Source of the DNA: a virus | Strand: one strand, 5' to 3' | DNA length: 64,000 bases | Virus record (IMG/VR): IMGVR_UViG_3300018933_000004 | Location: 14,791-78,790 of that record | Shown here: piece by piece, positions 28,388 through 62,403 of the stretch | How positions within the stretch are numbered: the first letter of the stretch is position 1 | How the letters are laid out: every line of letters begins with the position of its first letter | The notes under the pieces: model-generated | Databases searched by the model: none | Told to the model about the DNA's origin: nothing | What the model saw: only the letters and a program-made list of their open reading frames with translations | Translations under genes and position numbers: made by a program

Positions 28388-28413
28388 TCCGCACCGGCCG
28401 AACGCCCCCATCC

Positions 28414-28442
28414 TTGCAACGCATCTTTGGATGCGTTACGGT
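28414..28442 (+). promoter_or_regulatory. Conserved promoter/palindrome, copy 1
   Basis: TTGCAA-17-TACGGT with the AACGCATC-TTTG-GATGCGTT palindrome in the spacer. Confidence 0.75.
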
Positions 28443-28482
28443 GGGGGCGTTCCCTTGTCCAGCAACATGAAGGAGGCGCCCT

Positions 28483-28983
28483 GTGGCTCCCAAAAAGCAT
28501 CCGCCGCGCAGGACTCAGGGCGTCAACCCGTACCTGGTCGACATGACCGAGATCCCTCAGACCCCGGCCATCACCGCCGTGCACGAGATCGCCAAGCTGG
28601 CCTTCCAGGTCAGCCAGCTCCACGAGTCACTCGGCGAACTCGTCATCGACGGCACCGAGCTCGGCCTGGCCGAAGGCCAGATGCAGAGCCACGTCATCCG
28701 CGCCCAGGGCAGGCCCTTCAGCTGGCGCTCCCAGCTGACCAGGATCCTGGAGAGGGATCGCGGGTACGACTCCTCCCAGCCCTGGCGCGAGCGCACCAAG
28801 GACATCAGGCCCGAGGAGATCCCCTCCTACCTCAGCCCAGAGTCCGTCGCCGCCATCCGCGAGGGCGTCCAGGCCCTGGCCCGGGTGATCGCGGACGTCG
28901 AGGAGGCCCGCAAGAGGGAGTACCCGGCCGTCCACGCCCGCGCCAAGGCAGCCATCGAGGGCGTCTCCGCCAAGGCCAGCTGA
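28483..28983 (+). CDS. Hypothetical protein
   Basis: AAGGAGG RBS; directly downstream of the conserved promoter. Confidence 0.75.
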   Translation: MAPKKHPPRRTQGVNPYLVDMTEIPQTPAITAVHEIAKLAFQVSQLHESLGELVIDGTELGLAEGQMQSHVIRAQGRPFSWRSQLTRILERDRGYDSSQPWRERTKDIRPEEIPSYLSPESVAAIREGVQALARVIADVEEARKREYPAVHARAKAAIEGVSAKAS

Positions 28984-29082
28984 CAGAACAGCGCCCCCGA
29001 CAGGGTCCCTGGTCCGGACCGAGTCGGAGGCGCTGCGGCGAGGCCATCCACCCGAACATCCCGCCTAGGAGCACAAGCAGAC

Positions 29083-30072
29083 ATGGCCACCATCACCAAG
29101 AGTACCCGCATGGGCGGCGCGCTGTCCCGCACCGACTGGGACAAGACCCTCACCGACGGCGGCATCTACCTCCTCGCCGTCGGCGGCTTCTACGTCGGCT
29201 ACCAGACCCTCTACACCCAGGCCCTGCGCGTCGGCTTCCCCGAGGACCAGGCCGTCGTCGTCGCCGCCCTCGCCGACCTCGCCATCCTGCTGTACTCCCG
29301 CAAGGCCGTCCGCGAGGTCAAGGCCGGACGATCCGCCCGCATCATCCGCACCATCGTCGCCCTCTTCTCCCTGGCCACCTTCGCCCTCCAGCTCCGCGCC
29401 GCATGGGGCGACACCCTCTCCGTCACCTTCCACGCCCTGCCCCCGGCCGTCTGGATCATCGGCCACGAGATGATGCTGCGCGGCCGCCTGCGCGACGCCA
29501 AGGCCGCCCGCCGCACCGCCGAGATCAAAGCAGGCCTGCGCCCCGCCCCCCTGCCACGCATCCGCCGCGCCTGGTGGCTCCTGGACCCGGCCCACACCTT
29601 CACCGTCTGGCGCCTGTCCAAGATGTGGGAGAAGGACCCCGCCACCGTCATCCGCCACGAGGCCGCCAAGCGCCAAGCCGAGGGTAAGGACATCCCCCTC
29701 GCCTGGCAGGGCTTCCTCCTCGACACCCCGGCCCCGGACGCGCCCGTTCGCCACGAGATCTGCGGCGCCGCCACCCTCTTCACGCCCGAGGTCCCCGAGC
29801 TGCCCGCGCCGCCGGTCAGCGCCGTCCTGTACCGACAGTCCAACGACCGCGAAGAAGTCCCGGCCAACGAGGTCGCCGTGTTCCTCCGCACCCTGCCTGT
29901 CGCCCCGCTCAAGGGCCGCCCGAAGGACAAGGCCATGGAGTACATCCGCGAGGTCGAGGCGCTCGGCGCCCAGTACGACATCAAGGTCACCGGCAAGCTC
30001 CTCGCCGAACTGCTCCAGGTCGACGAGGGCCGCGTCTCCAAGATCCGCAAGGACATGGTCCCCACCCCCTGA
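29083..30072 (+). CDS. DUF2637-like membrane protein (Streptomyces plasmid/AICE type)
   Basis: Four TM helices, HALPPAVW, PLPRI..AWWLLDP..TF.VWR, C-terminal HTH-like segment. Confidence 0.7.
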   Translation: MATITKSTRMGGALSRTDWDKTLTDGGIYLLAVGGFYVGYQTLYTQALRVGFPEDQAVVVAALADLAILLYSRKAVREVKAGRSARIIRTIVALFSLATFALQLRAAWGDTLSVTFHALPPAVWIIGHEMMLRGRLRDAKAARRTAEIKAGLRPAPLPRIRRAWWLLDPAHTFTVWRLSKMWEKDPATVIRHEAAKRQAEGKDIPLAWQGFLLDTPAPDAPVRHEICGAATLFTPEVPELPAPPVSAVLYRQSNDREEVPANEVAVFLRTLPVAPLKGRPKDKAMEYIREVEALGAQYDIKVTGKLLAELLQVDEGRVSKIRKDMVPTP

Positions 30073-30143
30073 CCCGCAGTAGCCTGAACAGCAGCAGGGC
30101 CCAGGAGAACGTGACGGATCTCCTGGGCCCTGCTGCCGCACTC

Positions 30144-30503
30144 TCAGAGGGTGTAGGTGTCCCCGTTCAGCTGGTACAGCTCAACAGCCACCCGGCCCAG
30201 CAGATCGTCGCTGGCGCCCCGGTTGCACATCTCTCCCAGGTCCACCCGGAACTGCCGGATCGCCGCCGTCGAGGGCGCCCACCCGCCGTCCGTGTCCTCA
30301 ACCGTCCCCCTGGCACTGGCCAGCAGCGACTCGGCCGCGTCCCACTGCTCGCCGTCGTCCATCCGGCCAGCCCAGTCCGAACACGACCGCGCGCCCGGCG
30401 GCACCTCACTCTGCCCGCCGCCGTCCTCGCCGCCCGGATCTCCGCACGCGGTCACGGTGACCGCCAGCACGACGGCCGAGACGATCAAACCCACTCTGCA
30501 CAT
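30144..30503 (-). CDS. Putative lipoprotein
   Basis: Signal peptide with lipobox VTVTAC; conserved Cys pair. Confidence 0.65.
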   Translation of the reverse strand: MCRVGLIVSAVVLAVTVTACGDPGGEDGGGQSEVPPGARSCSDWAGRMDDGEQWDAAESLLASARGTVEDTDGGWAPSTAAIRQFRVDLGEMCNRGASDDLLGRVAVELYQLNGDTYTL

Positions 30504-30575
30504 CGCTCTCCCCTCCCGCCAAACCCTCCCCGGCCTGGCGGGAGACATTCAACCACCCGCCCCCACCACGAGAAG

Positions 30576-31361
30576 ATGAGCCGCATGACCGCGAAGGCGA
30601 AGAAGGCATGGGACGAGCTGAACAAACGTCAGCAGACCTACATGGAAGCCATCTACCACGCCGACCAGGCCGTCGAGGCAGCCCACCGCAAGGAGGCCGC
30701 CCGCACCTGGAGTAACACCCCCGCCCGCGTATGGCGCCGCCTGCCCTTCAACGGGCCCTACTCTCACATCGCGCCCGCGCTGCGCCACCACAAGGTCTAC
30801 GACACCGGCGCCGGAGCCACCCTGGCAGCGCTCCGCGACCGAGGGCTGATCGAGAGCGAGACCTGGACCGGCCTGCTCACCGACCCGGTCTACGTCTGGA
30901 TCACCCGCGAGGGGCGGGCGGCCGTACGGGCCGGGCTCGGTCTGCAGTCGGCGCGCACCAGCAAGCCCAAGTGGGCCCTGTCGGAGTGGCTCTGGAAGGA
31001 ACTGGTCAAGGTGGCCGCCGCCGGACCCGAGGGCCTCCAGCGCGGAGGGCTCTATGGCGACTCCCACCTCTATCTCTCCAAGGGACATAAAGGCCGCCGG
31101 GGCAACCGCCCCTACGTAGACGGCTCGAACTACCGGTGGGTCACCTACGACGCCTACGTCAGCCTCGGCAGCTCCGAGACGTACAAGAAGTCCGAGCCGG
31201 TGTACTACTACATCCTCACCGACGAGGGCCGCGCCCACTACGCCGAATACCTGGAGCAGTACCGCGAGCTGTACCCGGACATCGACGCCCCCGACCTACA
31301 GGATCCAGGCGGCCAGGAGGACGAGGAGCAGGACGGAGCCCCAGAAGCCGCCGACCAGTAG
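30576..31361 (+). CDS. Hypothetical winged-helix-like protein
   Basis: GATLAALRDRGLIE...VWITREGRAAVRA resembles wHTH ends; Streptomyces plasmid-type protein. Confidence 0.65.
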   Translation: MSRMTAKAKKAWDELNKRQQTYMEAIYHADQAVEAAHRKEAARTWSNTPARVWRRLPFNGPYSHIAPALRHHKVYDTGAGATLAALRDRGLIESETWTGLLTDPVYVWITREGRAAVRAGLGLQSARTSKPKWALSEWLWKELVKVAAAGPEGLQRGGLYGDSHLYLSKGHKGRRGNRPYVDGSNYRWVTYDAYVSLGSSETYKKSEPVYYYILTDEGRAHYAEYLEQYRELYPDIDAPDLQDPGGQEDEEQDGAPEAADQ

Positions 31362-31457
31362 CAGGGCAGCGCGGACGTACGGGTGGTGCGGTGTGTGGCG
31401 GGTCACGGCGTCCAGTGTGCCCTGGAATCTCCGGCTCCACCGAACGGGCCGGGAAAG

Positions 31458-31495
31458 GCCGAAGGCCCCCGAACGAGTCAACGGGGGCCTTCGGC
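31458..31495. terminator. Terminator hairpin between convergent units
   Basis: GCCGAAGGCCCCCG / CGGGGGCCTTCGGC. Confidence 0.75.
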
Positions 31496-31556
31496 TGCTT
31501 GGGCGCCTTGAGAGGTGCCTTCAGCGTTGCGATCCTCGCCCTGGGCGGATGGCTGT

Positions 31557-31630
31557 CTGCAACACCCCGCATCGGCGGGGACAACTGCAAGCAGTCAGCC
31601 GGGACATCCCCGCTGACGCGGGGGAATCAC
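31557..31630 (-). CRISPR. Two type I-E-like repeats separated by 15 nt (mini-array or solitary-repeat-like); no cas genes in window
   Basis: Minus strand: GTGATTCCCCCGCGTCAGCGGGGATGTCCC and GTTGTCCCCGCCGATGCGGGGTGTTGCAG, both with the CCCCGC-N4-GCGGGG stem and I-E-like flanks. Confidence 0.5.
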
Positions 31631-31727
31631 CTCACGGCGGCAAGGTGACCGGCCCGGTCCCAGGGCCCGTGCCGGTAAAAAGAACTCTAGCGGCTCCGGG
31701 CTGTTGGTGCGGGCGAGTTGGAGAGAT

Positions 31728-33149
31728 TCACTCTGCGGGGTGTCGGCGTCCCCGAAGGAAGGGGTAGCGCACTTCAAGGCCGAGGATGACAGTCGGCGGC
31801 CGCTGCAGGTACCGCCCCCACAGCGTCTCGTCCCGGTCCTGGCTGGGGCCGCGAACCGGCGCAGCTGCGGAGCTTTTCGTGGATCCCTCGTAGTTGTTGC
31901 AGGCTGCACACAGCAGGCCACGGACGAGTCCGGTGTCGTGGTCGTGGTCTTCGTGGTGCTCGGTACGGCCGGGGAGTATGCCGCACATCGCGCACCGGTT
32001 CTGGTGGAAGGCGAGGAGCCGGTCGACGGGGTGCTGGTCAGGGTCGTACGGCGGCACGGGCCAGGACCAGCAGTCGGGTTCGTAGCTCGCCCAGCGCTGC
32101 TCCCAGTCGTCCCAGCGCTGCTGGTACGCCCGGCACTCGGGGCAGGTGTCTGCCTCTTCGGGGGTGCGGTGGGCGTGCATGGGACTGGCGCCGAGGGTCT
32201 CTTCCAGGTCGCGCTGCATGCGCAGGGCGAGAGGAAGGTCTGTGGGCTGGGGGGTGTCGGTCCAGGTGCCGTCGCCCGCGCGGTGGCGGCGCTTGACGGT
32301 CGTGAGGGCGGCGGGCAGGCCGTCGGTGAAGGGAGTCGGGGAGAGGGCGATCTGGTCGGGTGTGACGCGGTCGGGCAGCAGCCGGTTGTCGCCTGCCGCG
32401 AGGACGGCGCGCAGCGCGGCGGCGGGGGTGACGTGGGGGTCGAGGCGGGCGCCGCTGCGGGAGGTGATGAGGGGTTCGGTGGGGTCGTCGGTGGGTGAGG
32501 GGACGCGGTGGGGGAGGTAGGCGCGGATGGCCCGTTCGAGCTCGCGGCTGATGCGGTAGACCTTGACGCCCTCGCCCTTGGGGAAGGGGGCTCGGACCTG
32601 CGGGGGGCGGTTGTCGAGGAGGGGGATGCTGTCGAGGTTGAGGCCGACGATCTGCCGGGGGCGGAAGCCGTCGAGCATGGCGTAGACGAGTGTCTTGTCG
32701 CGGTGGCCGTGGCGGGCGCCGCTGGCGGCGTGCAGCCGGGCGAGGAAGGCGATGGCGATGGTCTGGCGGCGGTCGAGGGCGGGGGTACGGGGCAGGTCGG
32801 TGGTGCGCAGCCGGGCGGGGTCGAAGGGCATCTCGTCCAGGCGGCCGGTGCGGACGGCGTAGTCGTAGAAGCTGGACAGGGCGCTGAGGCGGCGCATGCG
32901 GCTGTGGGCTGAGCCCTTGAGGCGGTCGCGGGCGCGGCGGCTGTGGGTGGCGAAGTCGGCCCAGGTCTGGACGTGGGCCTCGCTGGCGTTCCAGGCGCCG
33001 ATGCCCATGGCGTCCTCAATGAAGTCGAGCCAGGCGGTGACGTCCTCGCGGTAGCGGGCGGGCGTGGTGCCCTGGAAGGCGCGGTCCTGACGGCCGCGCT
33101 GGTGCTCGGTGAGCCACTCTTCCATGACGGCGTAGGGGTCGTCGGCCAA
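31728..33149 (-). CDS. Tyrosine-recombinase-like domain fused to recombination Endonuclease VII
   Basis: SAM-like N-domain (RRLSALSSFYDY), box I GFRPRQI, no HxxR or catalytic Tyr; C-terminal CAMC...EDHDHDTGLVRGLLCAACN. Confidence 0.8.
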   Translation of the reverse strand: MADDPYAVMEEWLTEHQRGRQDRAFQGTTPARYREDVTAWLDFIEDAMGIGAWNASEAHVQTWADFATHSRRARDRLKGSAHSRMRRLSALSSFYDYAVRTGRLDEMPFDPARLRTTDLPRTPALDRRQTIAIAFLARLHAASGARHGHRDKTLVYAMLDGFRPRQIVGLNLDSIPLLDNRPPQVRAPFPKGEGVKVYRISRELERAIRAYLPHRVPSPTDDPTEPLITSRSGARLDPHVTPAAALRAVLAAGDNRLLPDRVTPDQIALSPTPFTDGLPAALTTVKRRHRAGDGTWTDTPQPTDLPLALRMQRDLEETLGASPMHAHRTPEEADTCPECRAYQQRWDDWEQRWASYEPDCWSWPVPPYDPDQHPVDRLLAFHQNRCAMCGILPGRTEHHEDHDHDTGLVRGLLCAACNNYEGSTKSSAAAPVRGPSQDRDETLWGRYLQRPPTVILGLEVRYPFLRGRRHPAE

Positions 33150-33157
33150 GGTGATCC

Positions 33158-33310
33158 TCCCCGGATACAGCTTCTTTAGACAATTGCCAAGCCATCACCC
33201 TAGATGCCGTCGTGGTGCCCGTGCACGGAACAGTGCGGGGCGGCGCCGCGCGCGCACTTCTCTGAGAGGGGCGTGGCTCGGCGATTGTCTAAAGAAGCTG
33301 TATCCGGGGA
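33158..33310. repeat. 27-bp perfect inverted repeat pair with 99-bp spacer
   Basis: TCCCCGGATACAGCTTCTTTAGACAAT (33158-33184) / ATTGTCTAAAGAAGCTGTATCCGGGGA (33284-33310). Confidence 0.9.
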
Positions 33311-33494
33311 AAACGCGGTGACACCCGGGGTGGTTCACGAAGGATCGACGGCTGGCGGACCGCGTGGCGGAGAACCCGATCCTCCCACGGCCAGCACGGC
33401 GAACGCCAGAAACGCCGCGCCGTATCGTGTGGTCCATGCCCCGGCCTGCGTCAGTTCCTCCCCGACGGCTGACCGCTGCCGATAAGCTCCCTCC

Positions 33495-33908
33495 ATGAGG
33501 AGCACCGAGCCCGATCAGCCCGCCGACCCCGCCGACTTCCCTCCCGAAGTGCGGGACGCCCTGCGCAAGAGGAGTGAGCGCGGCCCCGTGGTCGATATGG
33601 CCACAGGCGAGCGCGTCGCCGAGGACGGCCGCCTGGTCTCCGACGAGCAGCTGGTCGCCTGTCTCGAATGCGCCCGCGCCATCGCCCTGGGCTGGTGGGG
33701 CGCCATCGCACGCCACTTCGGCAATCCCGATGCCCCTGTCTGCGCCCTGTGCGGCGAAGGCGAAGCCACCCTCACCCCCACCCAGTGGTTCGCCCAGGTC
33801 ACCCAGCTCATGCAGGCTCACATCGCCGCCGGGAAGCACCACAGCTGGCGTGAGGACTCTCTCACGCGCCTCGGCATCGCCAGCCCGGGAGCAGACGGCC
33901 GTGGATGA
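33495..33908 (+). CDS. Hypothetical protein
   Basis: 137 aa, two CxxC motifs. Confidence 0.6.
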   Translation: MRSTEPDQPADPADFPPEVRDALRKRSERGPVVDMATGERVAEDGRLVSDEQLVACLECARAIALGWWGAIARHFGNPDAPVCALCGEGEATLTPTQWFAQVTQLMQAHIAAGKHHSWREDSLTRLGIASPGADGRG

Positions 33909-34275
33909 CGTCGACCTCCTGCAGCACGCCACCCGCTTGCACAACGAGTGGCAGCACACGGCCTACCTCACCCTCGGCCGTCTGCTCAGCCGTGCTCACC
34001 GGGACGGCCTGCCCCCGCTCGAATGGACTGTCCTGCCCCACGGCGCGCTGCGCGGCGAGGTGCCCCACCGCGACTCTCGCGGTGAGGAGTACACCCCGGC
34101 GACGGGCCTGGCACTGTACGAGCGCTGGTGTGCCTACCTCGGGCCGGTCAAGCATGAGAAGGACAGGGTCTACTCCTTGCTGGGCAAGACGATCAAGACC
34201 GCGCGGGCCAGTGGCGCCCAGCCGTGGATGAAGGACACTCACATCGTCCTCCGCGTCGAGCTACGCGAGGAATGA
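33901..34275 (+). CDS. Hypothetical protein
   Basis: GTG 33901 overlapping the upstream gene end; VDDVDLLQHATRLHNEW... Confidence 0.6.
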   Translation: MDDVDLLQHATRLHNEWQHTAYLTLGRLLSRAHRDGLPPLEWTVLPHGALRGEVPHRDSRGEEYTPATGLALYERWCAYLGPVKHEKDRVYSLLGKTIKTARASGAQPWMKDTHIVLRVELREE

Positions 34276-34329
34276 CACCACCGGCGCGGCGATAGTCTGA
34301 GCCCACTCCATCCCGCCAAGGAGACGCTC

Positions 34330-34848: not shown

Positions 34849-35061
34849 GACGTCAGCGGCCCCGCCGGAGCGCACCATCGGGGGGGGAGGATCGTACGCA
34901 GCATCGGCGGGGCCTGGGGAGCGTGTACCCGGGTCTCGTTTGTTCATGCGCGCGCACGACAGACCCCGCTCCTGCGCCACAGAGGAGGGGTGGGGGCGCA
35001 AGAGCGGGGTCTGGCTCTGGGGGGTCAGCTCATGGGGACTTGGCGTTCAGCGGTGGTCGCG

Positions 35062-35259: not shown

Positions 35260-35325
35260 GTTCCCTCCCGGTGCCGGGTACCGAGTGTATGGCTTTCGGT
35301 ACCCGGCGTGATGGGTGTTGCGGAA

Positions 35326-37367: not shown

Positions 37368-37444
37368 CAGTCCTCCTGCTCGTAATGGACCTCCAGTCTA
37401 TCCCGATCAACGGTTCCACGGGTCAACGGTGAGACGGTTTTCTG

Positions 37445-38392
37445 TCAGGCCGCCATCAGGAACTTGGCCAGGTCGTACACCGGCGAGGCGTCCACGTCGT
37501 TGCGGGCCAGGTCGTAGCGGTTCGTCGTCCTGGGGTCGGCATGGCCGAGGAGCCGCTGGACGTTGCGCAGCGGCACCTTGGCGTCCAGCATCAGCGTGGC
37601 GCAGGTGTGCCGCAGGCCATGAGGGCTGATCACTTTGATGTGGGCGCCCCGGCAGGAACGGGCGACGATGACGGAGATGCGCCGGTTGGTCAGCCGGGCG
37701 CCGTCGGCGCACAGGATCAACGCATCGTCCGGCCTGCGGTTCGGCCGCCGGGCGTGGTGGGCGTCGATCGCCCGCGCGGCCTCGGGCGGCACGACCAGCG
37801 TCTGGACCTTCGTCCGTTTGCGGGTGATCTTCAGGGTGCGGTGGCCGCGCGCGCGGCCGTAGTCCTGCACGTTGGCCTTCTCCAGCTCCGACGAGCGCAG
37901 GCCCATCCCCAGCAGCACCTCGACGACGGCGGCGTCGACCGGACCGTACTCCCAGGCCACCGCGCGGAGGGCGCGGGCCTCGGCCTTGTCCAGGCCGAGC
38001 GTCTGGGACTCGTCGGACACCTCAACGCGGTGCTTCTTGCGGTACGGCGAGCGCCGAATCTCGTACGCCTGCTCGTACTCGTCCAGCCCGTACTCGTACC
38101 AGCCGCTCATGGCGCTGAGCGCCTGGTTCACCGAGGAGGGAGCGAGCACCTCCTGCAGGTCGGCCGACCACTGCGCGGAATGCTCCCGGCGGGCCGCCAG
38201 CGGGGAGACGCCGTTGTCGAGGGTCCAGTCGAACCAGTTCTCGATGCACCGCTTGTAGGCGGTGCGGGTGTGGGCGTTGCGGTGCTCCAGCAGCCACTGC
38301 CGCTCGATCTCCCCGCACACCCGGCGGATGTACGCCTCGTGCTCGTCGAGCAGCAGCGCACCCGCCGGGGCGACGACCAGGTCAGTGGTCAT
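37445..38392 (-). CDS. Tyrosine recombinase (XerC/D-like), intact catalytic set
   Basis: GLRSSEL, RKRTK, SPHGLRHTCAT, LLGHADPRTTNRY; start at ATG 38392. Confidence 0.92.
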   Translation of the reverse strand: MTTDLVVAPAGALLLDEHEAYIRRVCGEIERQWLLEHRNAHTRTAYKRCIENWFDWTLDNGVSPLAARREHSAQWSADLQEVLAPSSVNQALSAMSGWYEYGLDEYEQAYEIRRSPYRKKHRVEVSDESQTLGLDKAEARALRAVAWEYGPVDAAVVEVLLGMGLRSSELEKANVQDYGRARGHRTLKITRKRTKVQTLVVPPEAARAIDAHHARRPNRRPDDALILCADGARLTNRRISVIVARSCRGAHIKVISPHGLRHTCATLMLDAKVPLRNVQRLLGHADPRTTNRYDLARNDVDASPVYDLAKFLMAA

Positions 38393-38787
38393 GAGGTGCG
38401 TCCGGGGCGTCGAGAGGGAGGGATGGGGATGTGGTAGTAGGTAATCGCGGTGAGGTCGACGGAGATCTCGATCCGGGGTGGCCACGGATCACCTCGCCGT
38501 GCCCCTCGTTTGGCGGTACTGACCCTCCACCTGTTGCTGTGGAGCCGTACTCCCCAACCCCTCACCGTAAGGATCTCTCGGAGTAGGTCCCGCAACTCGC
38601 GCCGCGCCCGTCTGTCGCTGCACCGGTTGGGCTGGCTCTTGGCGTACGCAGCCACTGCCGCCCGCCGGATGGCCATGTGTGCGACGTCATCCGGCACCAG
38701 GGGAGGAAAGTCCTCCACCGGCTTGCGGTAGTGCCGGAGGTTGCGCTTCTCATCCCAGCCGTACTCCGCCAGGTCCTCGGCGGTCAC
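38389..38787 (-). CDS. Hypothetical protein
   Basis: Overlap-coupled to the recombinase gene. Confidence 0.55.
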   Translation of the reverse strand: MTAEDLAEYGWDEKRNLRHYRKPVEDFPPLVPDDVAHMAIRRAAVAAYAKSQPNRCSDRRARRELRDLLREILTVRGWGVRLHSNRWRVSTAKRGARRGDPWPPRIEISVDLTAITYYHIPIPPSRRPGRTS

Positions 38788-40486: not shown

Positions 40487-40807
40487 CTACAGGCTCAGGA
40501 AGCCGTGCTTGCGCAGGAGCGCCGCCACGGCGTCGGGCTCCATGCCGAGGTCGGTGGCGAGTCCTTCCGGGGACCTGGCGGGACGCCCTCGTGAGTACGT
40601 GCCGTCGCCCTGCCGCGATTCCAGCCAGCCGTCGCGCTTGAGGAGTTCCAGGGCTCGCACAACTGTCGGCCGGGACATGCCGTACTCCTGCGCCAGCCAT
40701 GTCTCGCTGGGGATGCGGGTGCCCGGCGGGTACGTGCCCGCCTTGATGTCCTGCTGGAGACGCTGTGCCAGCGCCAGGTACTTCGGTGGGGTCATCTCGT
40801 AGGCCAT
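40487..40807 (-). CDS. GntR-family HTH regulator (no effector domain)
   Basis: PKYLALAQRLQQDIKAGTYPPGTRIPSE..LAQEYGMSRPTVVRALELLKRDGWLESRQGDGTY. Confidence 0.9.
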   Translation of the reverse strand: MAYEMTPPKYLALAQRLQQDIKAGTYPPGTRIPSETWLAQEYGMSRPTVVRALELLKRDGWLESRQGDGTYSRGRPARSPEGLATDLGMEPDAVAALLRKHGFLSL

Positions 40808-40832
40808 GCGCGCACCCTTGGTCATCAAGTCA

Positions 40833-42113: not shown

Positions 42114-42317
42114 TCAGCCGGTCACGCCGCCGACGAACGCCGACCACGCGGCCGGGGAGACGGTGACGATGGGGCTCTTGGCGACGTCCTTGCTGTCGCG
42201 GATGTCGACCGCCGTGACGGCGCCGCCCGCCAGCTCCTTGCGCGTCTCGATGCAGGCCTCGCCGGACCCGCCGCTGTAGGAGGACTTCATCCACGGAGTG
42301 GTGCGCTTCTCGGTCAT
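42114..42317 (-). CDS. DUF397 protein
   Basis: WMKSSYSGGSGEACIE...VDIRDSKD...AWSAFV. Confidence 0.92.
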   Translation of the reverse strand: MTEKRTTPWMKSSYSGGSGEACIETRKELAGGAVTAVDIRDSKDVAKSPIVTVSPAAWSAFVGGVTG

Positions 42318-42341
42318 GCTGTACCTCTTCCAATCTCGTTG

Positions 42342-43214
42342 TCAGCCCACAAGTTGCTTGCGGGCCTCGTGCAAGTATCGACGACTGTCGGCCGGTGACA
42401 ACGCCTGGCCCTGGAGAGATTCGTATCTGACTCGATATGAACGGACTCGTTCCTCATCGTCGATGAACAAGCCATCTCCGTACCCTTCGCGGAACACCAT
42501 GTCAACGTTGACGTCGAATGTCAGGATGCTGAACGACCCCGACAGTCCTGAGTGCAGACCGGTATTCATGGGGAGCACCTGGATCTGGACCTGGGTCTCC
42601 CCCAGGTTGAGCAGGTGCTGGATCTGGTCTGCGTGAGCCCTCTTGTCGCCCGGCCGGGGCGGCGTCATCACCGCAGCCTCACCGAGGACGGCCCAGATGC
42701 GCGGAGGCAGCGGATTCTCGCGCCGCAGGAGGTCCTTTCGGGCCTCGCGCAGCTTGAGCAGGTCCGCCTGACGGCTGCTGTCGACGGGGTGCACCGTCGC
42801 ATCCGTGCTGATGACGGCCTGGGAGTACTCCTTCGTCTGGAAGAGGCCGTATATGACGTCCGGCTCGAAGACGCGCATGCCCTCGCACAGCCACTCCGCG
42901 CTGGCGTAGTCACTGAACGTCGGGCCGGGCGTGTTGTCGAACGTCGTCCAGGGGCCTTTCTGCTTGGCCAGCTTGGCCCACTTCAGCCACCTGTCGATCT
43001 CTTCCGGGTCGGTGACCCCGTACAGCTCGGCGTACCGGGGCACCAGATCGGCGCTGACGGCGGCGATCCCTGCCTCGTGCCGGTAGATGGCGGGCACGGA
43101 CAGCCCCAGCGCTTCCTTGACGGCCTCGACCTTCACCCCGGCGGCCAGGCGGGCGCGCTTGAGCATGTTGCCGAGGATCAGTCGCCTGATCGTCGGCCGT
43201 GCGTTGTATGCCAC
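42342..43214 (-). CDS. XRE-HTH + DUF5753 regulator (WhiJ/Scr1-like)
   Basis: RRLILGNMLKRAR HTH; GLFQTKEYS; WAVLGEAA; QIQVLP; GSFSIL. Confidence 0.9.
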   Translation of the reverse strand: MAYNARPTIRRLILGNMLKRARLAAGVKVEAVKEALGLSVPAIYRHEAGIAAVSADLVPRYAELYGVTDPEEIDRWLKWAKLAKQKGPWTTFDNTPGPTFSDYASAEWLCEGMRVFEPDVIYGLFQTKEYSQAVISTDATVHPVDSSRQADLLKLREARKDLLRRENPLPPRIWAVLGEAAVMTPPRPGDKRAHADQIQHLLNLGETQVQIQVLPMNTGLHSGLSGSFSILTFDVNVDMVFREGYGDGLFIDDEERVRSYRVRYESLQGQALSPADSRRYLHEARKQLVG

Positions 43215-43416
43215 TCATCCTCCCCTGTCGTGGCGCGCTGGGCACAGTCTGCACCCCGGGAGCGGGAGATGACCAACGCCCGTACTGAGGATTATCACCC
43301 GGAAGGGCTTGCGTAGATGAGAATTCTCCGCAACGGTGGGTAACAGCCTGCTTGCGCCAGGTACCGCAGAGGCGTGAGCCGGTCTCATCCGCCAACCCTG
43401 TCTTGGGAGTTACCTC

Positions 43417-43968
43417 ATGCACTCCCCGCCTCACCAGGGGCCGCCACCCCTGGGCAATCTGCGCCACATGCGCTACCGCGAGTTCTATCCGCTGCGGGAC
43501 CAGAGCGTTCCGCAGGCCCGGCATGAGTTCCGCGCCGCCGCCTTCCGCAGCGACCTGGACGGCGGCGTCGCCGAAGCAGCCGAGATCTGCTTGTCGGAGC
43601 TGGCCAGCAACGCCGTACAGCACGCCGACGACCCCCGGCCTCGCCGCTGGTTCCATGTCAGCTGCAACGTCCTGGGCGTGTACCGCCGGTACCTGCTGAT
43701 CGGCGTGCACGACGTCGACAGCGGGCACATCCCCCGGATGCCCCGCGTCCCGGTTGACCCCCTCGACGCCTTCGATGACGAGTCCGAGTCCGGGCGCGGG
43801 CTGTTGCTCGTCGCCGGACTGGCCACCGCCGTCCGCATCGAACACGGCCCCGGCGTCAACGGCAAGACGATCTGGTGCCGGTTCGACCTCCCCGTCGGTC
43901 CTCCCACGCTCGGCAACCGGCTTGTGCCCCTCTCCCGCCAGGCCAAGCCCTCCTCCCCCGTCGTCTGA
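43417..43968 (+). CDS. HATPase_c-family ATP-binding (anti-sigma-like) protein
   Basis: SVPQARH, LSELASNAVQHA, ESGRGLLLV, GKTIWC. Confidence 0.88.
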   Translation: MHSPPHQGPPPLGNLRHMRYREFYPLRDQSVPQARHEFRAAAFRSDLDGGVAEAAEICLSELASNAVQHADDPRPRRWFHVSCNVLGVYRRYLLIGVHDVDSGHIPRMPRVPVDPLDAFDDESESGRGLLLVAGLATAVRIEHGPGVNGKTIWCRFDLPVGPPTLGNRLVPLSRQAKPSSPVV

Positions 43969-43990
43969 CGGAAACCCCGCACCCCCACCC

Positions 43991-44019
43991 TTGTAACGCA
44001 TCTCGATATGCGTTACGGT
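43991..44019 (+). promoter_or_regulatory. Conserved promoter/palindrome, copy 2
   Basis: TTGTAA-17-TACGGT; GTAACGCAT-CTCGAT-ATGCGTTAC. Confidence 0.8.
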
Positions 44020-44141
44020 GGGGGTGCTGTTCGTCGGAGTTGTTTACATCTCGCGCCGCCGACCGCCATTGGCAGGCGCGTAGCGTAAACGGCCCGTCAG
44101 TAAGGATTCCCGCCAGTCCTTCACCGTCAGGAGCGTCCTTT

Positions 44142-44994: not shown

Positions 44995-45025
44995 TTGACG
45001 AACGCATCTCAAGATGCGCTAGGGT
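44995..45025 (+). promoter_or_regulatory. Conserved promoter/palindrome, copy 3
   Basis: TTGACG-19-TAGGGT; AACGCATCTCAAGATGCGCT. Confidence 0.75.
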
Positions 45026-45062
45026 GGGGCCCGTTGAAGTCATTCCCGCCAAGGAGAACGCC

Positions 45063-57314: not shown

Positions 57315-57392
57315 CCCCCTGCACCACCACGGCGCCCGGTACGACCGCCGGGCGCCCACCCGACCACGACCACACCAGAAAGGGCACAGATC

Positions 57393-57743
57393 ATGAGCAG
57401 TGCGCCGACCGCCCAGACGCCCGCCCGCCGCCCGTACAACGCCGCCAACGTCGCCTACGTCGACCAGGGCACCGTCATCACCGCCGTGTGGGTGTCCGAC
57501 CCCGCCATCGACCCGGCGGAAGCGCTGGACAAGATCCTTCACCGTGACCTGCCGTACGAGGTGGAGGAGATCGCGGAGGCGACGCGCTTCTACAAGAGCG
57601 AGGGGGCCACGTTCTCCGGCTGGATCATCCGCCAGGCCAGCAACGGCAACCACAGCACCGAGCCCATCGCCAACAAGCGCGCCGCCATGAAGGAGCTGCG
57701 CGGCTGGGTCGAGGGCTACTTCGAGCGCAGGGGGAACAGGTGA
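57393..57743 (+). CDS. Hypothetical protein
   Basis: 116-aa ORF after AAGGG RBS. Confidence 0.65.
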   Translation: MSSAPTAQTPARRPYNAANVAYVDQGTVITAVWVSDPAIDPAEALDKILHRDLPYEVEEIAEATRFYKSEGATFSGWIIRQASNGNHSTEPIANKRAAMKELRGWVEGYFERRGNR

Positions 57744-58367
57744 CCACGGCCAACGAGGGATACGCCCCCGTCGACTTCGCGGACGTCGGCGAAGGGGACG
57801 TGCTGAGGTTCGTCACCAGAGACACCGGCTACGGCGGCCGGGGACTGTACGTCCGCGACGGGCGCGTGATCGCCGTGACGCCGAAGACAGTGCGCCTGTG
57901 GTGCGACGACGACACCCCCAGGGGGCACCGTGGCCGTACTGCGCCGCGCCGACTGGAACGGCCGCGCCGTGCTGCGCAAGGTCGCCAACAAGCCCGCCGA
58001 CGCGCCCAGGACGTACACCTACACCGCCGAGACCTACGGGGACACCCCGGGCGAGTATGTGACGCGGGAGTTCACGATCACGGGCCCGCTGTACCACGGG
58101 GGTGGCCGCCGACTGCGCGAGGGTGATCAGCTCACCGCCGGGCGCCGTACGAACCCCTGGGGTGACGAGGGGGCCAGGAGCCGCTACGTCCACTTCACCA
58201 CGCGCCTGGACGTCGCCGCCGAGTACGCCAGGCAGAGCGGGGGCCACGTCTTCGAGGTGGAGCCGACGGGGCCGTTCTCTGTCGGCTACGGCGGCGAGGA
58301 GTACAAGACCGAGCACCCGCTGAACGTCGTGCGGCGGCTGGCCCCCCAGGAGTGGCACGACGCCTAG
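57740..58367 (+). pseudogene. Frameshifted (or two-part) gene with C-terminal Arr-like ADP-ribosyltransferase domain
   Basis: The frame from 57740 joins the frame of 57930-58367 if one G is removed from the G5 run at 57921-57925; LYHGG...EGDQL...VHFT...VFEVEPTG. Confidence 0.6.
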
Positions 58368-58430
58368 GCCCGCCCCGCTCGCGACGACCCCGCCAGAATC
58401 GCCAGACACCCCAGGAGAGGACACACAGCC

Positions 58431-58829
58431 ATGGCGCTGGAGACCACCACGGAGACCTACACCCGCACGACCCTGCGCGACGGTACCCGCGTCGTGGGCG
58501 TGGTCGTCGGCAACGAGGAGGAGGGATACCGCGCGGAGCACTGGATGCCCGCCCTCACCGATGGACGTTGGTACGGCGCCTACGAGGTGGAGGCGTGCCC
58601 GTCGGGCGAGTGGGACACGGTGGCGGATGCGCTGGGCTGGCTGAGGGACCGCTACGCCCTGGAGAGCCACAAGTACGCCGACCGCCCGCAGCAGCCGAAG
58701 ATCTCCAGCACCGTGCCCGCCCAGGACGCGCCGAGGGTGACGTGCAGCGCCCACTACGGGGAGCACAGGCAGGGGGAGGACTGCGAGGAGCCCAAGGGGG
58801 CCCAGGGAGCGCCCCAGGGGGCCGTGTAG
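58431..58829 (+). CDS. Hypothetical protein
   Basis: GAGAGGA RBS; 132 aa. Confidence 0.65.
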   Translation: MALETTTETYTRTTLRDGTRVVGVVVGNEEEGYRAEHWMPALTDGRWYGAYEVEACPSGEWDTVADALGWLRDRYALESHKYADRPQQPKISSTVPAQDAPRVTCSAHYGEHRQGEDCEEPKGAQGAPQGAV

Positions 58830-58993
58830 CCACCCCCTGGGGGCACGAGGGGCCCAGGGCAGGGGCAGAGACGGCGAGCCCGCCCCTGCCGTCTGTATGG
58901 GCTTGTGCGCATATAGGACAGAACGGTTACCCCCGCGAGGGGGCGAAGAGGGGGCCGGGGCCGGGCGCCCGGAATCCTGGGGCACCCCTGCGC

Positions 58994-59022
58994 TTGTAAC
59001 GCATCTTGAGATGCGCTACCGT
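58994..59022 (+). promoter_or_regulatory. Conserved promoter/palindrome, copy 8
   Basis: TTGTAA-17-TACCGT; AACGCATCTTGAGATGCGCT. Confidence 0.8.
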
Positions 59023-59061
59023 GGGCCACCCCGCCAGACAGACAGAGACGAGGAGCACCGA

Positions 59062-60795
59062 ATGGGCGAGATCATCGACATCAAGCGCAAGCCGACCACC
59101 GTGCAGGTCGAGGCGCTGCGCAAGGGCGCGGTGCAGCGCAACGGGATCATCGCGCTGGGAGACCAGAACGACCGCACCCAGGAGGGCCTGGCGCGCCGGG
59201 GCATGGGTGAGTGGAGGTCGGCGACGGACATGGGCGAGCGCGGTACGCACTCGTGGTTCGTGATCACCCAGCGCGGCCGGGACTACCTGGCCAAGGGGGA
59301 GCGGGTCGCGGCGGAGGCGGCCGAGGAGCGCCGGGAGTCTGCGCCGGTGGTGTCCGGGAACGTGTGCGCCGAGTCGACAGAGTCGTGCTCGGGTGCGGTG
59401 GAGTACCGGCGTACCGGTACGCATCGGCGGGGGGCGTACCTGTGCGTGGTGCACGGTGGGGCGCAGCGTGCTGCGGTGGAGGCCGTGAGCGCCCCCGTGG
59501 CGGCCGAGGAGCGGGCGGAGCTGCCCGAGGTTCCGGAGAGTGCTGCGCCGCGCAGCATGGCGGATGCCATTGCGTTCCTGGGGTCTTTGAAGGTGGGTGA
59601 CCGGGTGCGGGTGACGCGTGAGGGGCGCACGGCGGATCTGACGGTGTCTCGGGGGCCGCGCCGTTCCGATGGGGCGTTCGGGTCGCCGGAGTCGCTGGGG
59701 GTGACGGTGTCGTACGGGGTGGGGCGTTACAGCTTTGAGGTAAACGCTGGGCATCTGTTCGCGCAGCGGGCGGGGCGGCACACCACCTACGGGGGCACCC
59801 GCATGATGCGTCTGCCCGCTGAGGCGCCCGCGCCGAAGACGGCGGCTGACAACGCGTCGGAGGTGTCGGCTCGGTTCGCTGCCCGCCAGAGGGGCCAGGA
59901 GGGCGTGGAGAGGGACATGGGGAGCATGAGCGAGCCGGAGCACGCCAGCGCGCTCAGTGCCCGTTTCGCTGAGGCGCAGCGCCCGGGGGGCGTGGGTGAG
60001 TCCGAGGTCGCCGAGGACGGTCGCGCGGTCGGCTTCTACGTCACGGTGCGCCACGGCAAGCAGCGGGGGTTCCTGCTGGGCCCGTACGCGACCAAGCAGG
60101 ACGCGGACGGCAACGTGAGCCGCGCCCGTCGGCACGCCGAGGAGCAGGTCAACGAAGCGTGCTTCTACGAGTACGGTACGGCGCGCGCCGTGGCCAAGCC
60201 TGGCCGTGCGCTGCCGGAGGGAAAGTTCAACGACAGCATCGGCCTGCGGGCCGAGGAGGAGGGGGAGACCGTGAGCGCTGAGGAGACGCCGGTGGAGCGG
60301 ATCAAGCGGGCCAGGACGGGGGCGGGGGTGCTGGGGGCGCTGCGCGCGCCGCATACTCCGCACGGGGATGCGGGTGACCGGGTGTTCACCATTGAGGTCA
60401 CCACGCGTGTGGTGAGCGGTGAGGCGGAGTCGTGCCGCTTCGAGGGTGAGGGTGACCCGGAGCACGAGTGCACGGGGGACTGCACGTCGCTGGAGGGGGA
60501 CGTGAGGGAGTTGGAGGCGCCGCGCACCGAGGAGGTCACGGCCGACGGGGATGACCTTGAGGTGTTCGGGGGTGACCCGGTGGCGTGGGCGGTGGATTAC
60601 ATCCGGACCAAGACGGATGCGGTGGAGCCGTCGGCGAGCCCGGTGGGTGACAGGGCGCGTGAGCACGAGTGGCTGAGCGGCGTCTACGTGGACCCGTACG
60701 ACAACAGTCGTGAGACGCACACGAGCGTGCGCCTGACGGGTGACTGGTCCGAGGAGGAGCGGGCGCGGGTGTTCAAGGGCGTGCGGGGGGTCTAG
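59062..60795 (+). CDS. Large hypothetical multidomain protein (G-rich codons)
   Basis: GAGGAG RBS before ATG 59062. Confidence 0.75.
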   Translation: MGEIIDIKRKPTTVQVEALRKGAVQRNGIIALGDQNDRTQEGLARRGMGEWRSATDMGERGTHSWFVITQRGRDYLAKGERVAAEAAEERRESAPVVSGNVCAESTESCSGAVEYRRTGTHRRGAYLCVVHGGAQRAAVEAVSAPVAAEERAELPEVPESAAPRSMADAIAFLGSLKVGDRVRVTREGRTADLTVSRGPRRSDGAFGSPESLGVTVSYGVGRYSFEVNAGHLFAQRAGRHTTYGGTRMMRLPAEAPAPKTAADNASEVSARFAARQRGQEGVERDMGSMSEPEHASALSARFAEAQRPGGVGESEVAEDGRAVGFYVTVRHGKQRGFLLGPYATKQDADGNVSRARRHAEEQVNEACFYEYGTARAVAKPGRALPEGKFNDSIGLRAEEEGETVSAEETPVERIKRARTGAGVLGALRAPHTPHGDAGDRVFTIEVTTRVVSGEAESCRFEGEGDPEHECTGDCTSLEGDVRELEAPRTEEVTADGDDLEVFGGDPVAWAVDYIRTKTDAVEPSASPVGDRAREHEWLSGVYVDPYDNSRETHTSVRLTGDWSEEERARVFKGVRGV

Positions 60796-60885
60796 GAGGG
60801 TCTGGGAGCGCCCGGTGGCCGTGTGGTTGCCGGGCGTTCCTGTTGGGGGCGTGGCGGGGCGTGTGGGCGTGGGGCACCCCTACGC

Positions 60886-60914
60886 TTGTAACGCATCTTG
60901 AGATGCGCTACGGT
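60886..60914 (+). promoter_or_regulatory. Conserved promoter/palindrome, copy 9
   Basis: TTGTAA-17-TACGGT; AACGCATCTTGAGATGCGCT. Confidence 0.8.
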
Positions 60915-60956
60915 GGGCACCCCCGCCAGACAGACAGCAGCAACGAGGAGCACACC

Positions 60957-62249
60957 ATGGCGATCATCTACCGGGACAGCAACGGCAACGAGGAGCGCCG
61001 GGAGTTCGTGGGCGCGGTGCTGGGCAAGCGCGAGCAGAACCTGTACCACGACAGCTACTTTCACGCGATCGTGTGGGACGAAGAGCGCAGCGAGGTGCGC
61101 AGCGTCGAGTACGGGGCGACGGCCTACTACTCGAACACCGGGGTCACGGTGGACGCGACCCGCGAGGTGATCGAAAAGGCCGTGGCGCAGCGCGCGGCTC
61201 AGTACCTGGCCGACTGGGAGCGTGAGCACAACGACACGGTCCGCAAGGGCTACACCGCGCGGGTCACGGTGCGCGGTGAGGGCACCGTGGAGGGCGTTGT
61301 GGCGTGGGAGGCCCGCTACGGCACGCCCACGCCCCGATACGGCATCCGGGTGGAGGGTCGCAAGGGCCTGGTCTTCCGCGACAAGGGCGCCAAGAGCCTG
61401 AAGGTGGACGTCCCCGCGTGGACGGCTGAGGACCGCGCGGAGATGACGGAGCGCGCCGAGACCCTCGCGCGCCACGACTTCAGCGAGGCGCTGCGCCTGG
61501 CGGACGAGCGGGAGCCGCTGGAGCCCGTGCCGGGCCCGGGGACCGTGGTGGACTCCCAGGAGGCGGACGCGGACGGGTTCCGCCTGTACGCGTTCGGGGA
61601 GTCGTTCGCCGAGGAGTCGTTCACGCGGGGTGTGGCGGAGGCCGTGATCGACCAGGGCGCGGCTGGCTACACCGTGACGGGGCGGCGGGCGGACGGCACC
61701 GCGATCACGGCCCGCGAGGTGACCGTGCTCCAGGCGCTGGGGCGTGTGGCGCACTGGGCGGAGTCGGACGTGACCCGCATCGAGCACGACGGGCGGGGCG
61801 TGGTGCGCATGGTGCGCCCGAACGGGGCGCGGCTCGTCCTGGTCCCGGTGTACCCGGTCGTCCCGGCGGCCGGGGAGGGGCCTCAGAAGGCCGTGAGCGC
61901 CCCCGTGGCGGCCCAGGAGCGGCCGGAGGGCGAGGAGGCCGCCGACGGCGCCCGGGAGGCCCTGGAGGCGGCGCGGGGGACGGAGGGTGACCCGGAGTGG
62001 GTGGCGCGCCGGGATGCGGCGCTGGAGCGGGTGCTGCGGCTGCTGGACGGGGAGGCGGCGCGGTACCGGCGGACGGTGATCACCCGTGAGGGTCTGCCGG
62101 GGGCGGGGGACACGCTGCCGACGGATGCGGCGTGGGTGTATCTGGCCGAGGAGGTTGCCGACGGGGGGCAGGTGGAGGACCTGCGGCGCGGCGAGGTGAG
62201 GCTGACGCGGGCGAACGGTGCGCGGCTGAGGTTGAACCCGGTGGCCTGA
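60957..62249 (+). CDS. Hypothetical multidomain protein (G-rich codons)
   Basis: GAGGAG RBS before ATG 60957; N-terminal REQNLYHDSYF.A.VWD motif. Confidence 0.75.
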   Translation: MAIIYRDSNGNEERREFVGAVLGKREQNLYHDSYFHAIVWDEERSEVRSVEYGATAYYSNTGVTVDATREVIEKAVAQRAAQYLADWEREHNDTVRKGYTARVTVRGEGTVEGVVAWEARYGTPTPRYGIRVEGRKGLVFRDKGAKSLKVDVPAWTAEDRAEMTERAETLARHDFSEALRLADEREPLEPVPGPGTVVDSQEADADGFRLYAFGESFAEESFTRGVAEAVIDQGAAGYTVTGRRADGTAITAREVTVLQALGRVAHWAESDVTRIEHDGRGVVRMVRPNGARLVLVPVYPVVPAAGEGPQKAVSAPVAAQERPEGEEAADGAREALEAARGTEGDPEWVARRDAALERVLRLLDGEAARYRRTVITREGLPGAGDTLPTDAAWVYLAEEVADGGQVEDLRRGEVRLTRANGARLRLNPVA

Positions 62250-62347
62250 CGACGGATTTCGTTGTGCGCCCGCTAGGGCGAGCCACGATATTCGTTGCGG
62301 CTCGCCCCTGTGGGTGCGGATTCCGTTGTTTCCCCAAGACCCGCCCC

Positions 62348-62372
62348 TACGCATCCCAAGATGCGCTAGGGT
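62348..62372 (+). promoter_or_regulatory. Conserved palindrome/promoter, copy 10
   Basis: TACGCATCCCAAGATGCGC followed by TAGGGT; -35 not evident. Confidence 0.7.
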
Positions 62373-62403
62373 GGGGTACCCCGCCACTGATAAGGAGCCC
62401 AAG

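Follow-up and report, generated by a model that had tools for sequence, protein, structure and literature searches.

Repeated, probable promoter-operator modules, a few perhaps doubling as terminators, in a predicted Streptomyces phage-plasmid

T4-type phages carry repeated intergenic modules, the promoter-early stem-loops (PeSLs), in which a sigma-70 promoter is combined with a stem-loop (Arbiol et al. 2010, PMC2839356; Comeau et al. 2014, PMC4122927). The stem-loop may lie between the -35 and -10 elements or overlap them and serves as a terminator or attenuator of transcription coming from upstream; the modules cluster in a plastic region whose genes are mostly unknown, and recombination and mini-circles were shown (PMC2839356, PMC4122927). 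Phages phiC31 and L5 carry 18-30 repressor sites per genome, and in L5 one repressor, acting at many dispersed sites, silences most of a large temperate phage (PMC4557955). The subject of this study is a set of ten repeats in a 64,000-nucleotide stretch of viral DNA (the window: bases 14791-78790 of the 79.4-kb IMG/VR virus record IMGVR_UViG_3300018933_000004, 69% G+C), which by the evidence of its sequence belongs to a ~155-kb phage-plasmid of Streptomyces.

The reading we prefer, to which we assign a probability of about 0.72, is that the repeats are composite promoter-operator modules resembling PeSLs and that a few of them double as terminators. In both systems the elements follow one another in the order stop codon, stem-loop, sigma-70-type promoter, Shine-Dalgarno (SD) sequence, start codon. 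An earlier, sequence-only reading of the window had taken the repeats for the heads of cassettes, folding into extended hairpins that might be either recombination sites like the attC sites of integrons or promoters formed by single-stranded DNA (ssDNA) or cruciforms.

Promoter and operator features of the repeats

The core of the repeat was sought with the pattern GCATC-N5-ATGCGYTASSGTGGG, which matches ten times in the window, always on the plus strand, against 0.01 matches expected; the count for the whole 79-kb record is ten forward and none in reverse. A profile search found no extra copy in the record and three more, also co-oriented, in the continuation of the element on a second record (G001), making 13 sites in the joined element. 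Every copy points in the same direction as the gene downstream of it, and in each the same order is found: a -35 hexamer, a spacer filled by a palindrome, a -10 element, GGG(G), a leader with CCCGCC, an SD sequence, and a start codon. The -35 hexamer is TTGCAA, TTGTAA, TTGACG, TTGACT, TTGGCA, or TAGACA, and it is missing only in copy 62351 (copies are designated by the position of their core or by their number in Table 1). The spacers, of 17-19 nt, are made up of the palindrome (A/G)CGCATC-N4-GATGCG(C/T), which is 18-20 bp long and extends up to AGCGCATCT-TG-AGATGCGCT. The -10 element is TAGGGT, TACGGT, or TACCGT, and the SD sequence and start codon lie 51-64 nt past the core in eight of the ten copies. 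While the palindrome and the -10 element stay fixed, the position of the -35 hexamer shifts by as much as 2 nt among the window copies and 3 nt in the family, as would be expected of an independent -35 box.

The same features are evident when the comparison is extended to 60 repeat sites from eight related elements. A hexamer that agrees with TTGACA in at least five of six letters, 16-19 nt away from the -10 element, is present at 53% of these sites but at only 0.6% of random positions, and one that agrees in at least four of six at 75% as against 8%. The spacer measures 17-18 nt in 46 of the 56 scored sites, the -10 element conforms to TAnnn(T) at every site, and the distance from the -10 element to the start codon has a median of 38 nt (interquartile range 33-42). 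By the criterion of sequence, each repeat is a host-type promoter of the HrdB/sigma-70 kind, even though a consensus scanner for promoters and terminators, whose criteria are TATAAT and a T-run, calls none of these sites. No match to sigma-70 region 2 was found in the 133 of ~155 kb searched. A search for the T7-like RNA polymerase family gave no match in the records, nor in any of the control genomes. The units headed by the repeats contain from one to five or more genes, and each unit has its own promoter.

The leaders of the ten copies (28446-62400) share an element, CCCGCC(A/G)AGGAG, located between the -10 element and the start codon. CCGCC occurs in this position at 48 of 56 family sites, compared with 25% of random 45-mers. 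In several copies the leader element can pair with GGTGGG of the promoter.

The palindrome behaves differently from the promoter elements around it. Within a genome it is identical from copy to copy; between genomes both arms differ together, while -35 and -10 are unchanged. Four types can be distinguished: GCGCATC/GATGCGC in the window, G002, L026, L028, and L033; GCGCACT/AGTGCGC in L030, L031, and L034; ATGCAyAT/ATrTGCAT in L029, L032, and L035; and ATGCATC/GATGCAT in L036. Besides the 13 sites of the joined element there are 5-9 copies per relative locus, and no operator palindrome occurs in the window outside the repeats. Since a mere fold would need no such identity, the recurrence of the same letters in 5-13 copies per genome argues for a sequence-specific regulator. 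The pattern fits an operator that has co-evolved with a sequence-specific dimeric protein.

Four proteins may be considered candidates for that role: a WhiJ-like protein, a GntR-type protein, a small HTH_3 protein in the G001 part of the element, and a weak helix-turn-helix (HTH) protein at 8.2-8.8 kb. In the WhiJ-like protein the recognition helix has the letters YRHE in genomes with GCGCATC, YRQE or YRNE in those with GCGCACT, and YRYE in those with ATGCAyAT, but the groups defined by palindrome type are also clades, so the match is only a hint of a link between this protein and the operator. The WhiJ-like gene (an Xre regulator) forms a triad at 42114-43968 with a DUF397 (BldB-like) gene and a HATPase_c_2 (anti-sigma-like) gene, and all relatives examined have kept the triad at the array head. 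Such triads are typical of Streptomyces developmental loci. When IMG/VR was scanned with an alignment of the WhiJ-like protein, the matches were two known members and four distant phages whose repeats are unrelated, so that the comparison of helix with operator gained no data. A distant phage with a WhiJ-like gene (L058:5840-10500) has repeated palindromes of its own, unrelated to those described here, e.g., CTCCGCTAGTCGACTAGCGGAG in three copies. Palindromes of this repeated, operator-like kind may therefore be common among the phages of Streptomyces.

Outside the 155-kb contigs, several Streptomyces genomes (L048:3820-3844, L051, L046/L052, L050/L055, L053) each carry a single copy of a near-identical module, TAGCTACA-CGCATC-TATGG-ATGCGTTAGGGTGGGG. 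More than 200 nt without an obvious open reading frame (ORF) lie downstream of these single modules, and the one in L046/L052 adjoins a gene pair encoding GntR and HATPase_c_2 proteins. They could be promoters of small RNAs, or satellites answering to the same regulator. Perhaps the palindrome is the DNA target that has long been sought for WhiJ-type regulators, the triad is the master switch of a phage-plasmid family that is widespread, the four specificities are immunity types, and the single chromosomal copies are host or satellite loci that sense the regulator, but this larger scheme is a long shot.

Hairpins at the upstream side of the modules

The sequence-only reading held that the heads of the units fold into extended bulged hairpins, and the sequences it quoted sit exactly at 28401-28451 and 43981-44025. 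To what extent the flanks pair beyond the palindrome was judged with the core palindrome held fixed and the left flank either shuffled or swapped for random genomic 20-mers. The left flanks of copies 28421 and 43998 pair with their right flanks better than at least 99.7% of shuffled or random genomic flanks (p 0.000-0.003). For copy 50508, p was 0.07-0.16, and for the other seven copies 0.17-0.86. Folding of the whole 62 nt as ssDNA gave z scores of -6.9 (28421), -7.1 (43998), -5.6 (50508), -3.4 (62351), and -2.3 (60893), with four copies between -1.3 and -1.9 and copy 55769 at +0.45. When cognate flanks were compared with non-cognate flanks over the ten copies together, p was 0.00035, a result owed mainly to copies 1 and 2. 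Family-wide, 12 of the 60 sites are extended (p <= 0.01). Three of the window copies (28421, 43998, and 50508), and perhaps a fourth, thus have an extended hairpin, which is not a feature of the repeat family; the claim of extended heads is borne out in part. At copy 50508 the pairing of CCCACG with CGTGGG that had been pointed out is indeed present, with GC/GC in addition. As for the CTT that had been described as a conserved extrahelical bulge, the letters are conserved, but they are the 5' start of the -35 box (cTTGtaa / cTTGcaa / cTTGac) rather than a bulge.

The three extended copies are set apart by their position as well. They start 11-13 nt past the upstream stop codon, where there is no room for another hairpin. 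Six other copies lie 72-171 nt past the stop codon, each behind a separate stem-loop of -30 to -43 kcal/mol. Among the 60 family sites, a strong separate hairpin accompanies none of the 12 extended sites and 34 of 46 others (Mann-Whitney p = 4e-5). The embedded hairpin and the separate hairpin substitute for each other one for one.

Comparison of orthologous sites bears on whether the extended stems are maintained. Downstream of HATPase_c_2, the outer arms in four genomes are GCACCCCCACC, GCACCTCCACCC, CGACGAGCCCA, and ACGTGGCCCAC, each matched by a complementary right arm at its own site. Three genomes have minus-strand genes next after HATPase_c_2, with a plain hairpin in place of the extended stem. 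The stem 5' of the unit encoding the 166-aa and DUF2637 proteins is kept in four of five genomes (the fifth has a separate hairpin), while its letters change from AACGCC/GGCGTT to GCAGCC/GGCTGC or CAGCCCC/GGGGCTG. Where the extended stem is lost, in L035 and L026, a plain hairpin takes over its position. At copy 50508 and its ortholog in L028, the variable bases of the -10 element (TACCGT vs TAGAGT) co-vary with the left arm. RNAalifold, even when run on an ungapped alignment, detects compensatory changes in 7 of 16 pairs. Thus compensatory changes in the flanking stems, which had been proposed as a check, are present at orthologous sites of relatives, and the sequences support selection for the flank hairpin at a subset of the copies.

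How the parts might work together can be pictured as follows. Each module would offer a HrdB/sigma-70-type promoter whose 16-19-nt spacer is filled by a palindromic operator of 18-20 bp, followed by the leader (CCCGCC..AGGAG) and the first gene of the unit. One dimeric regulator specific to the element would switch all of the at least 13 units of the arm together, and it would most simply be a repressor that occludes RNA polymerase. A stem-loop may insulate the unit upstream, usually in the form of a separate, GC-rich hairpin located after the stop codon and before the -35 box. Where the module abuts the stop codon (28421, 43998, 50508), the promoter flanks themselves would pair, and the operator palindrome would become the tip of a hairpin of 20-26 bp. 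Both arms would be present only in RNA read through from upstream; transcripts initiated at the promoter within the module would begin past the -10 element and lack the left arm, and therefore the hairpin could act on the upstream transcript alone. It may end or stabilize that transcript while leaving the module's own transcript unaffected. Ending the upstream transcript is the most likely role of the three extended hairpins, to judge from their sequences.

Weighing of the readings

The proposal that the repeats are attC-like, i.e., that their hairpins fold in ssDNA and the units are cassettes of the integron type, cut out and inserted by a tyrosine recombinase encoded nearby, has become very hard to believe. 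Imperfect bulged hairpins do occur at three of the ten copies, relatives do differ by whole promoter-headed units (e.g., an extra 517-aa unit in L028), and the window does encode a tyrosine recombinase, as had been noted, with the extent 37445-38485 on the minus strand. But the core-site motif GTTRRRY (R') is found within +/-45 nt of 0/10 copies and the inverse core RYYYAAC (R'') of 1/10. The recombinase scores 46.4 bits against a cut-off of 265 with the integron-integrase model TIGR02249, over residues 267-326 only (the C-terminal catalytic part), and its best match is XerC-like; it lies 5.5 kb from the nearest copy, with several genes between, on the opposite strand, and with no attI/Pc layout. 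The units carry their own promoters, contrary to what is expected of promoterless cassettes, and up to five or more genes each. A significant stem is found in only two or three of the ten copies, so that the repeats combine near-identical sequence with variable structure, the reverse of attC, and the supposed extrahelical bases belong to the -35 box. Cassette order, the comparison of which had been suggested as a check, also speaks against attC: the order of units is syntenic in G002, L026, L028, and L029 at 37-88% protein identity, not shuffled. In assembled metagenome contigs (biocrust, two soil) there are no joints at motif positions; the joints listed have sides of 20-26 letters and look spurious. 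A related and less exclusive idea is that the modules serve additionally, as PeSLs do, as points of homologous recombination through which related elements gain, lose, and exchange units. This is possible, if somewhat doubtful. At least 13 near-identical direct repeats of 35-45 bp are available for it; the arm is a mosaic, in which many genes between conserved anchors are without a homolog in relatives; G001 and G002 differ in the presence of promoter copies at orthologous positions; and PeSLs provide the precedent. In addition, L028:12070-13724 is an extra promoter-headed unit (the 517-aa protein, with no window homolog), flanked by two modules and inserted between orthologs of the 700-aa and 170-aa genes. 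On the other side, no breakpoint has been mapped within any module, and in the comparison of L028 with the window, the single case examined, homology resumes at the stop codon 5' of the module rather than in it.

Three other proposals accept that the modules are regulatory but differ in what the palindrome or the hairpin does. In one of these, the extruded hairpin is itself the promoter, as for the virion RNA polymerase of phage N4 or the Frpo-type ssDNA promoters of conjugative plasmids. It is true that a conserved stem of 7-9 bp with a loop of 2-4 nt stands just 5' of a strongly conserved box in every copy, and that the element has plasmid-like genes, e.g., DUF2637. A hairpin promoter gives no role to a -35 box that slides at sigma-70-like spacing, however, and in the extended fold the -35 and -10 elements lie on opposite arms and pair, so that the fold abolishes the duplex promoter. 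Moreover, stem sequence varies between genomes while -35 and -10 stay, the extended stem is absent at most sites, and the three quarters of family sites that lack it keep -35, -10, and their spacing. This form of the earlier proposal, too, we find highly improbable. Less far-fetched, though still quite unlikely, is the view that an extended palindrome is a larger site for protein binding or cruciform formation, a master operator of high affinity and not a terminator acting at the level of RNA. In its favor, the inner palindrome is most perfect in copies 1 and 2, which are located at the borders of the leftward gene block, and both strands fold equally well. Yet the outer arms of orthologs (GCACCCCCACC, GCACCTCCACCC, CGACGAGCCCA) are unlike in sequence and nonetheless complementary, pointing to structure rather than a recognized sequence, and the extended stems replace ordinary hairpins one for one. 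Finally, the palindrome might bind an activator, either an activator of middle or late genes or a MerR-type factor that twists the spacer, instead of a repressor. The position of the operator does not settle the sign of regulation, several copies (45004, 53822, 62351) have a 19-nt spacer or a poor or absent -35 box, and none of the candidate regulators has an operator at its own promoter. Against this, most scored sites have spacers of 17-18 nt, a length that is near-optimal and does not fit control of the MerR type, for which 19-20 nt are required; steric repression, besides, classically works from a site that fills the spacer. We regard an activator as unlikely.

Several observations weigh against the reading of the repeats as promoter-operator modules with occasional terminators. 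It is from sequence that we infer start sites, termination, and regulation at the modules, all three. The -35 box is missing in copy 62351 and at three sites in relatives, and copy 45004 has neither kind of hairpin. The hairpin stems lack a canonical U-tract, their tails having few T residues (e.g., TGTTCGT after copy 2) and no run of them. When G-U mismatches are set against A-C mismatches, the two strands prove to fold about equally well, which leaves action on RNA and action on DNA indistinguishable. No operator is present in the promoter region of any candidate regulator, and the single near-identical motifs in other Streptomyces contexts raise the possibility that the regulator is encoded by the host or shared with other elements.

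The element and its comparison with known systems

The IMG/VR record from which the window is taken overlaps, at 79321-79450, the reverse complement of positions 53323-53452 of the 53-kb record G001, end to end over 130 nt with 99% identity, and therefore the two records are pieces of one element. The break adjoins a paralogous repeat of 73% identity; the assembly probably broke at a duplicated gene. One window protein is recorded on a contig of 154,557 bp, and homologs are found on contigs of 150-158 kb in at least 25 Streptomyces assemblies. Family members of 152-158 kb are present in the S. cellulosae, Streptomyces sp. V3I8, and MH60 assemblies, for example. Plasmid-like genes, of which DUF2637 is an example, are present. 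The left part of the window codes for a primase, a DnaE-like polymerase, a RecA/UvsX-like protein, and a large terminase, and the middle (31.7-43.2 kb, mostly minus strand) for the Xer-like tyrosine recombinase, a recombinase-EndoVII fusion, the GntR-type protein, and the WhiJ-like regulator with its DUF397 partner. From 43.4 kb on, all genes are on the plus strand, and almost none belongs to a known family. The phage relatives of the DnaE-like polymerase are only ~30% identical to it. Megablast of 20 kb of sequence against GenBank phages gave no match, and a scan of IMG/VR with a single protein found no relative. Likewise, tblastx of the record against G001 and G002 gave only high-GC noise apart from the end overlap, and tblastn of window proteins against the motif-bearing parts of G001 and G002 gave no match. 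A search of the literature for this ~155-kb Streptomyces phage-plasmid family found no publication describing it.

Coordinates of the modules, the hairpins, and the genes discussed are collected in Table 1.

Table 1. Modules, hairpins, and selected genes of the window (flank p and z as defined in the text)
Feature	Coordinates	Strand	Promoter elements and start codon	Hairpin, scores, and remarks
Copy 1 (28421)	28400..28452	+	-35 TTGCAA (28414-28419); palindrome ACGCATC-TTTG-GATGCGT; -10 TACGGT (28437-28442)	Extended hairpin 13 nt past stop at 28387; no separate hairpin; flank p 0.001-0.002, z -6.9; stem kept in orthologs
Unit downstream of copy 1	28483-31361			
Xer-like tyrosine recombinase	37445..38485	-		Not an integron integrase
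Small GntR-type winged-helix protein	40487..40807	-		Alternative candidate regulator
DUF397 (BldB-like) gene	42114..42317	-		Partner of WhiJ-like regulator
WhiJ-like regulator (HTH_31 + DUF5753)	42342..43214	-		Divergent from array head; candidate operator-binding protein
HATPase_c_2 anti-sigma-like gene	43417..43968	+		Ends at copy 2 hairpin; divergent from WhiJ-like gene
Copy 2 (43998)	43979..44027	+	-35 TTGTAA (43991-43996); -10 TACGGT (44014-44019)	Extended hairpin GCACCCCCACC / GGTGGGGGTGC, 11 nt past HATPase_c_2 stop; p 0.000-0.003, z -7.1
Copy 3 (45004)	44995..45029	+	-35 TTGACG; spacer 19 nt; -10 TAGGGT; start codon 45063	Outer pairing weak, CAACGG/CCGTTG; no separate hairpin; p 0.21-0.34, z -1.5
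Separate GC-rich stem-loop 5' of copy 4	48269..48298	+		-31 kcal/mol (segment 48245-48298); putative terminator of preceding unit
Copy 4	48317..48350	+	-35 TAGACA; spacer 18 nt; perfect palindrome AGCGCATCT-TG-AGATGCGCT; -10 TACGGT; start codon 48376	
Copy 5 (50508)	50489..50535	+	-35 TAGACA; -10 TACCGT	Extended hairpin CCCACG/CGTGGG + GC/GC, 11 nt past stop at 50478; z -5.6, p 0.07-0.16; ortholog L028 13730 p 0.01
Separate stem-loop 5' of copy 6	53737..53780	+		-35.7 kcal/mol
Copy 6 (53822)	53813..53847	+	-35 TTGACT; spacer 19 nt; -10 TAGGGT; start codon 53885	
Separate stem-loop 5' of copy 7	55704..55739	+		15-bp stem, loop of 6; -42.8 kcal/mol (55690-55739)
Copy 7 (55769)	55761..55794	+	-35 TTGGCA; spacer 18 nt; -10 TACGGT; start codon 55827	Flanks unpaired; p 0.72-0.74, z +0.45
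Copy 8	58994..59026	+	-35 TTGTAA; spacer 17 nt; -10 TACCGT; start codon 59062	
Separate stem-loop 5' of copy 9	60804..60841	+		-34.2 kcal/mol (60788-60841)
Copy 9 (60893)	60886..60918	+	-35 TTGTAA; spacer 17 nt; -10 TACGGT; start codon 60957	
Separate stem-loop 5' of copy 10	62266..62317	+		-40.3 kcal/mol
Copy 10 (62351)	62336..62376	+	No -35 match; -10 TAGGGT; start codon 62404	Left arm CCCGCCC mirrors GGGTGGG; z -3.4, p 0.18

Some further observations concern the arm itself. The leader from copy 2 to the first gene of the array (44026-44141) is unusually long, at ~115 nt, and is conserved at the nucleotide level with the relative L028. This stretch could contain a small ORF or act as a leader RNA; Rfam gave no family match in the window. 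At 51101-52630, three repeats with a tRNA-like T-arm (GGTTCGA..CC) and a common acceptor-like stem follow stop codons, and they occupy the same places in L029, L030, and L032. ARAGORN called no tRNA in the window. The 603-aa protein encoded at 53885-55696 shares only an N-terminal domain of ~140-160 aa (55-75% identity) with the 649-, 1061-, 683-, and 333-aa proteins of relatives. In this constant head with a variable body it is like polymorphic effector families.

What is new here, if the reading of the repeats as promoter-operator modules is right, would be the host group and type of element, the fusion of operator and terminator at the tip of one hairpin, the alternation of embedded and separate hairpins, and the presence of four operator types in one family. 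To specialists the logic will be familiar from PeSLs, phiC31, and P1, and the surprise is modest. The finding that a single palindromic operator is shared by all promoters of a ~45-kb arm, whose genes are unknown, would turn a speculative, integron-like reading into a regulatory design that can be tested, and the substitution of hairpins suggests how promoter, operator, and transcript end may be packed into 50 bp. The four operator types might provide orthogonal pairs of promoter and regulator for the engineering of Streptomyces, once the regulator is found.

Several known systems share one or another of these features. Integron attC sites, too, lie between genes of the same orientation and are imperfect inverted repeats in which some bases are left unpaired, but the sites described here have no R''/R' core sites and no IntI, and they have their own promoters, several genes per unit, conserved sequence, and syntenic order. 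The tail-less ('I-shaped') intrinsic terminators of actinobacteria consist of GC-rich stems directly past stop codons, with no clear U-tract, and their efficiency is debated. A GC-rich stem past the stop without a clear U-tract is common to both, but here the stem encloses a complete promoter-operator. In phiC31, Ingham and colleagues are said to have described, in 1993/1994, highly conserved intergenic inverted repeats and a family of near-identical early promoters. The sequences of the present modules are unrelated to those of phiC31, whose c repressor goes with many conserved inverted repeats, and here operator and promoter are fused, with the palindrome within the spacer. P1, which is also a phage-plasmid, has one repressor that acts at many dispersed operators and silences most of the phage. 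The C1 operators of P1 and the stoperators of mycobacteriophage L5 resemble the present sites in being many and dispersed. They differ in being asymmetric and bound by a monomer, and those of L5 block elongation, whereas the sites considered here are symmetric and lie in the promoter spacer. The PeSLs of T4-type phages are the closest described system. The present modules depart from them in belonging to a phage-plasmid of a high-GC Streptomyces host, in having as inner stem a genome-specific, operator-like palindrome common to all copies, and in embedding the stem in the promoter at only a minority of copies, the rest being provided with a separate hairpin.

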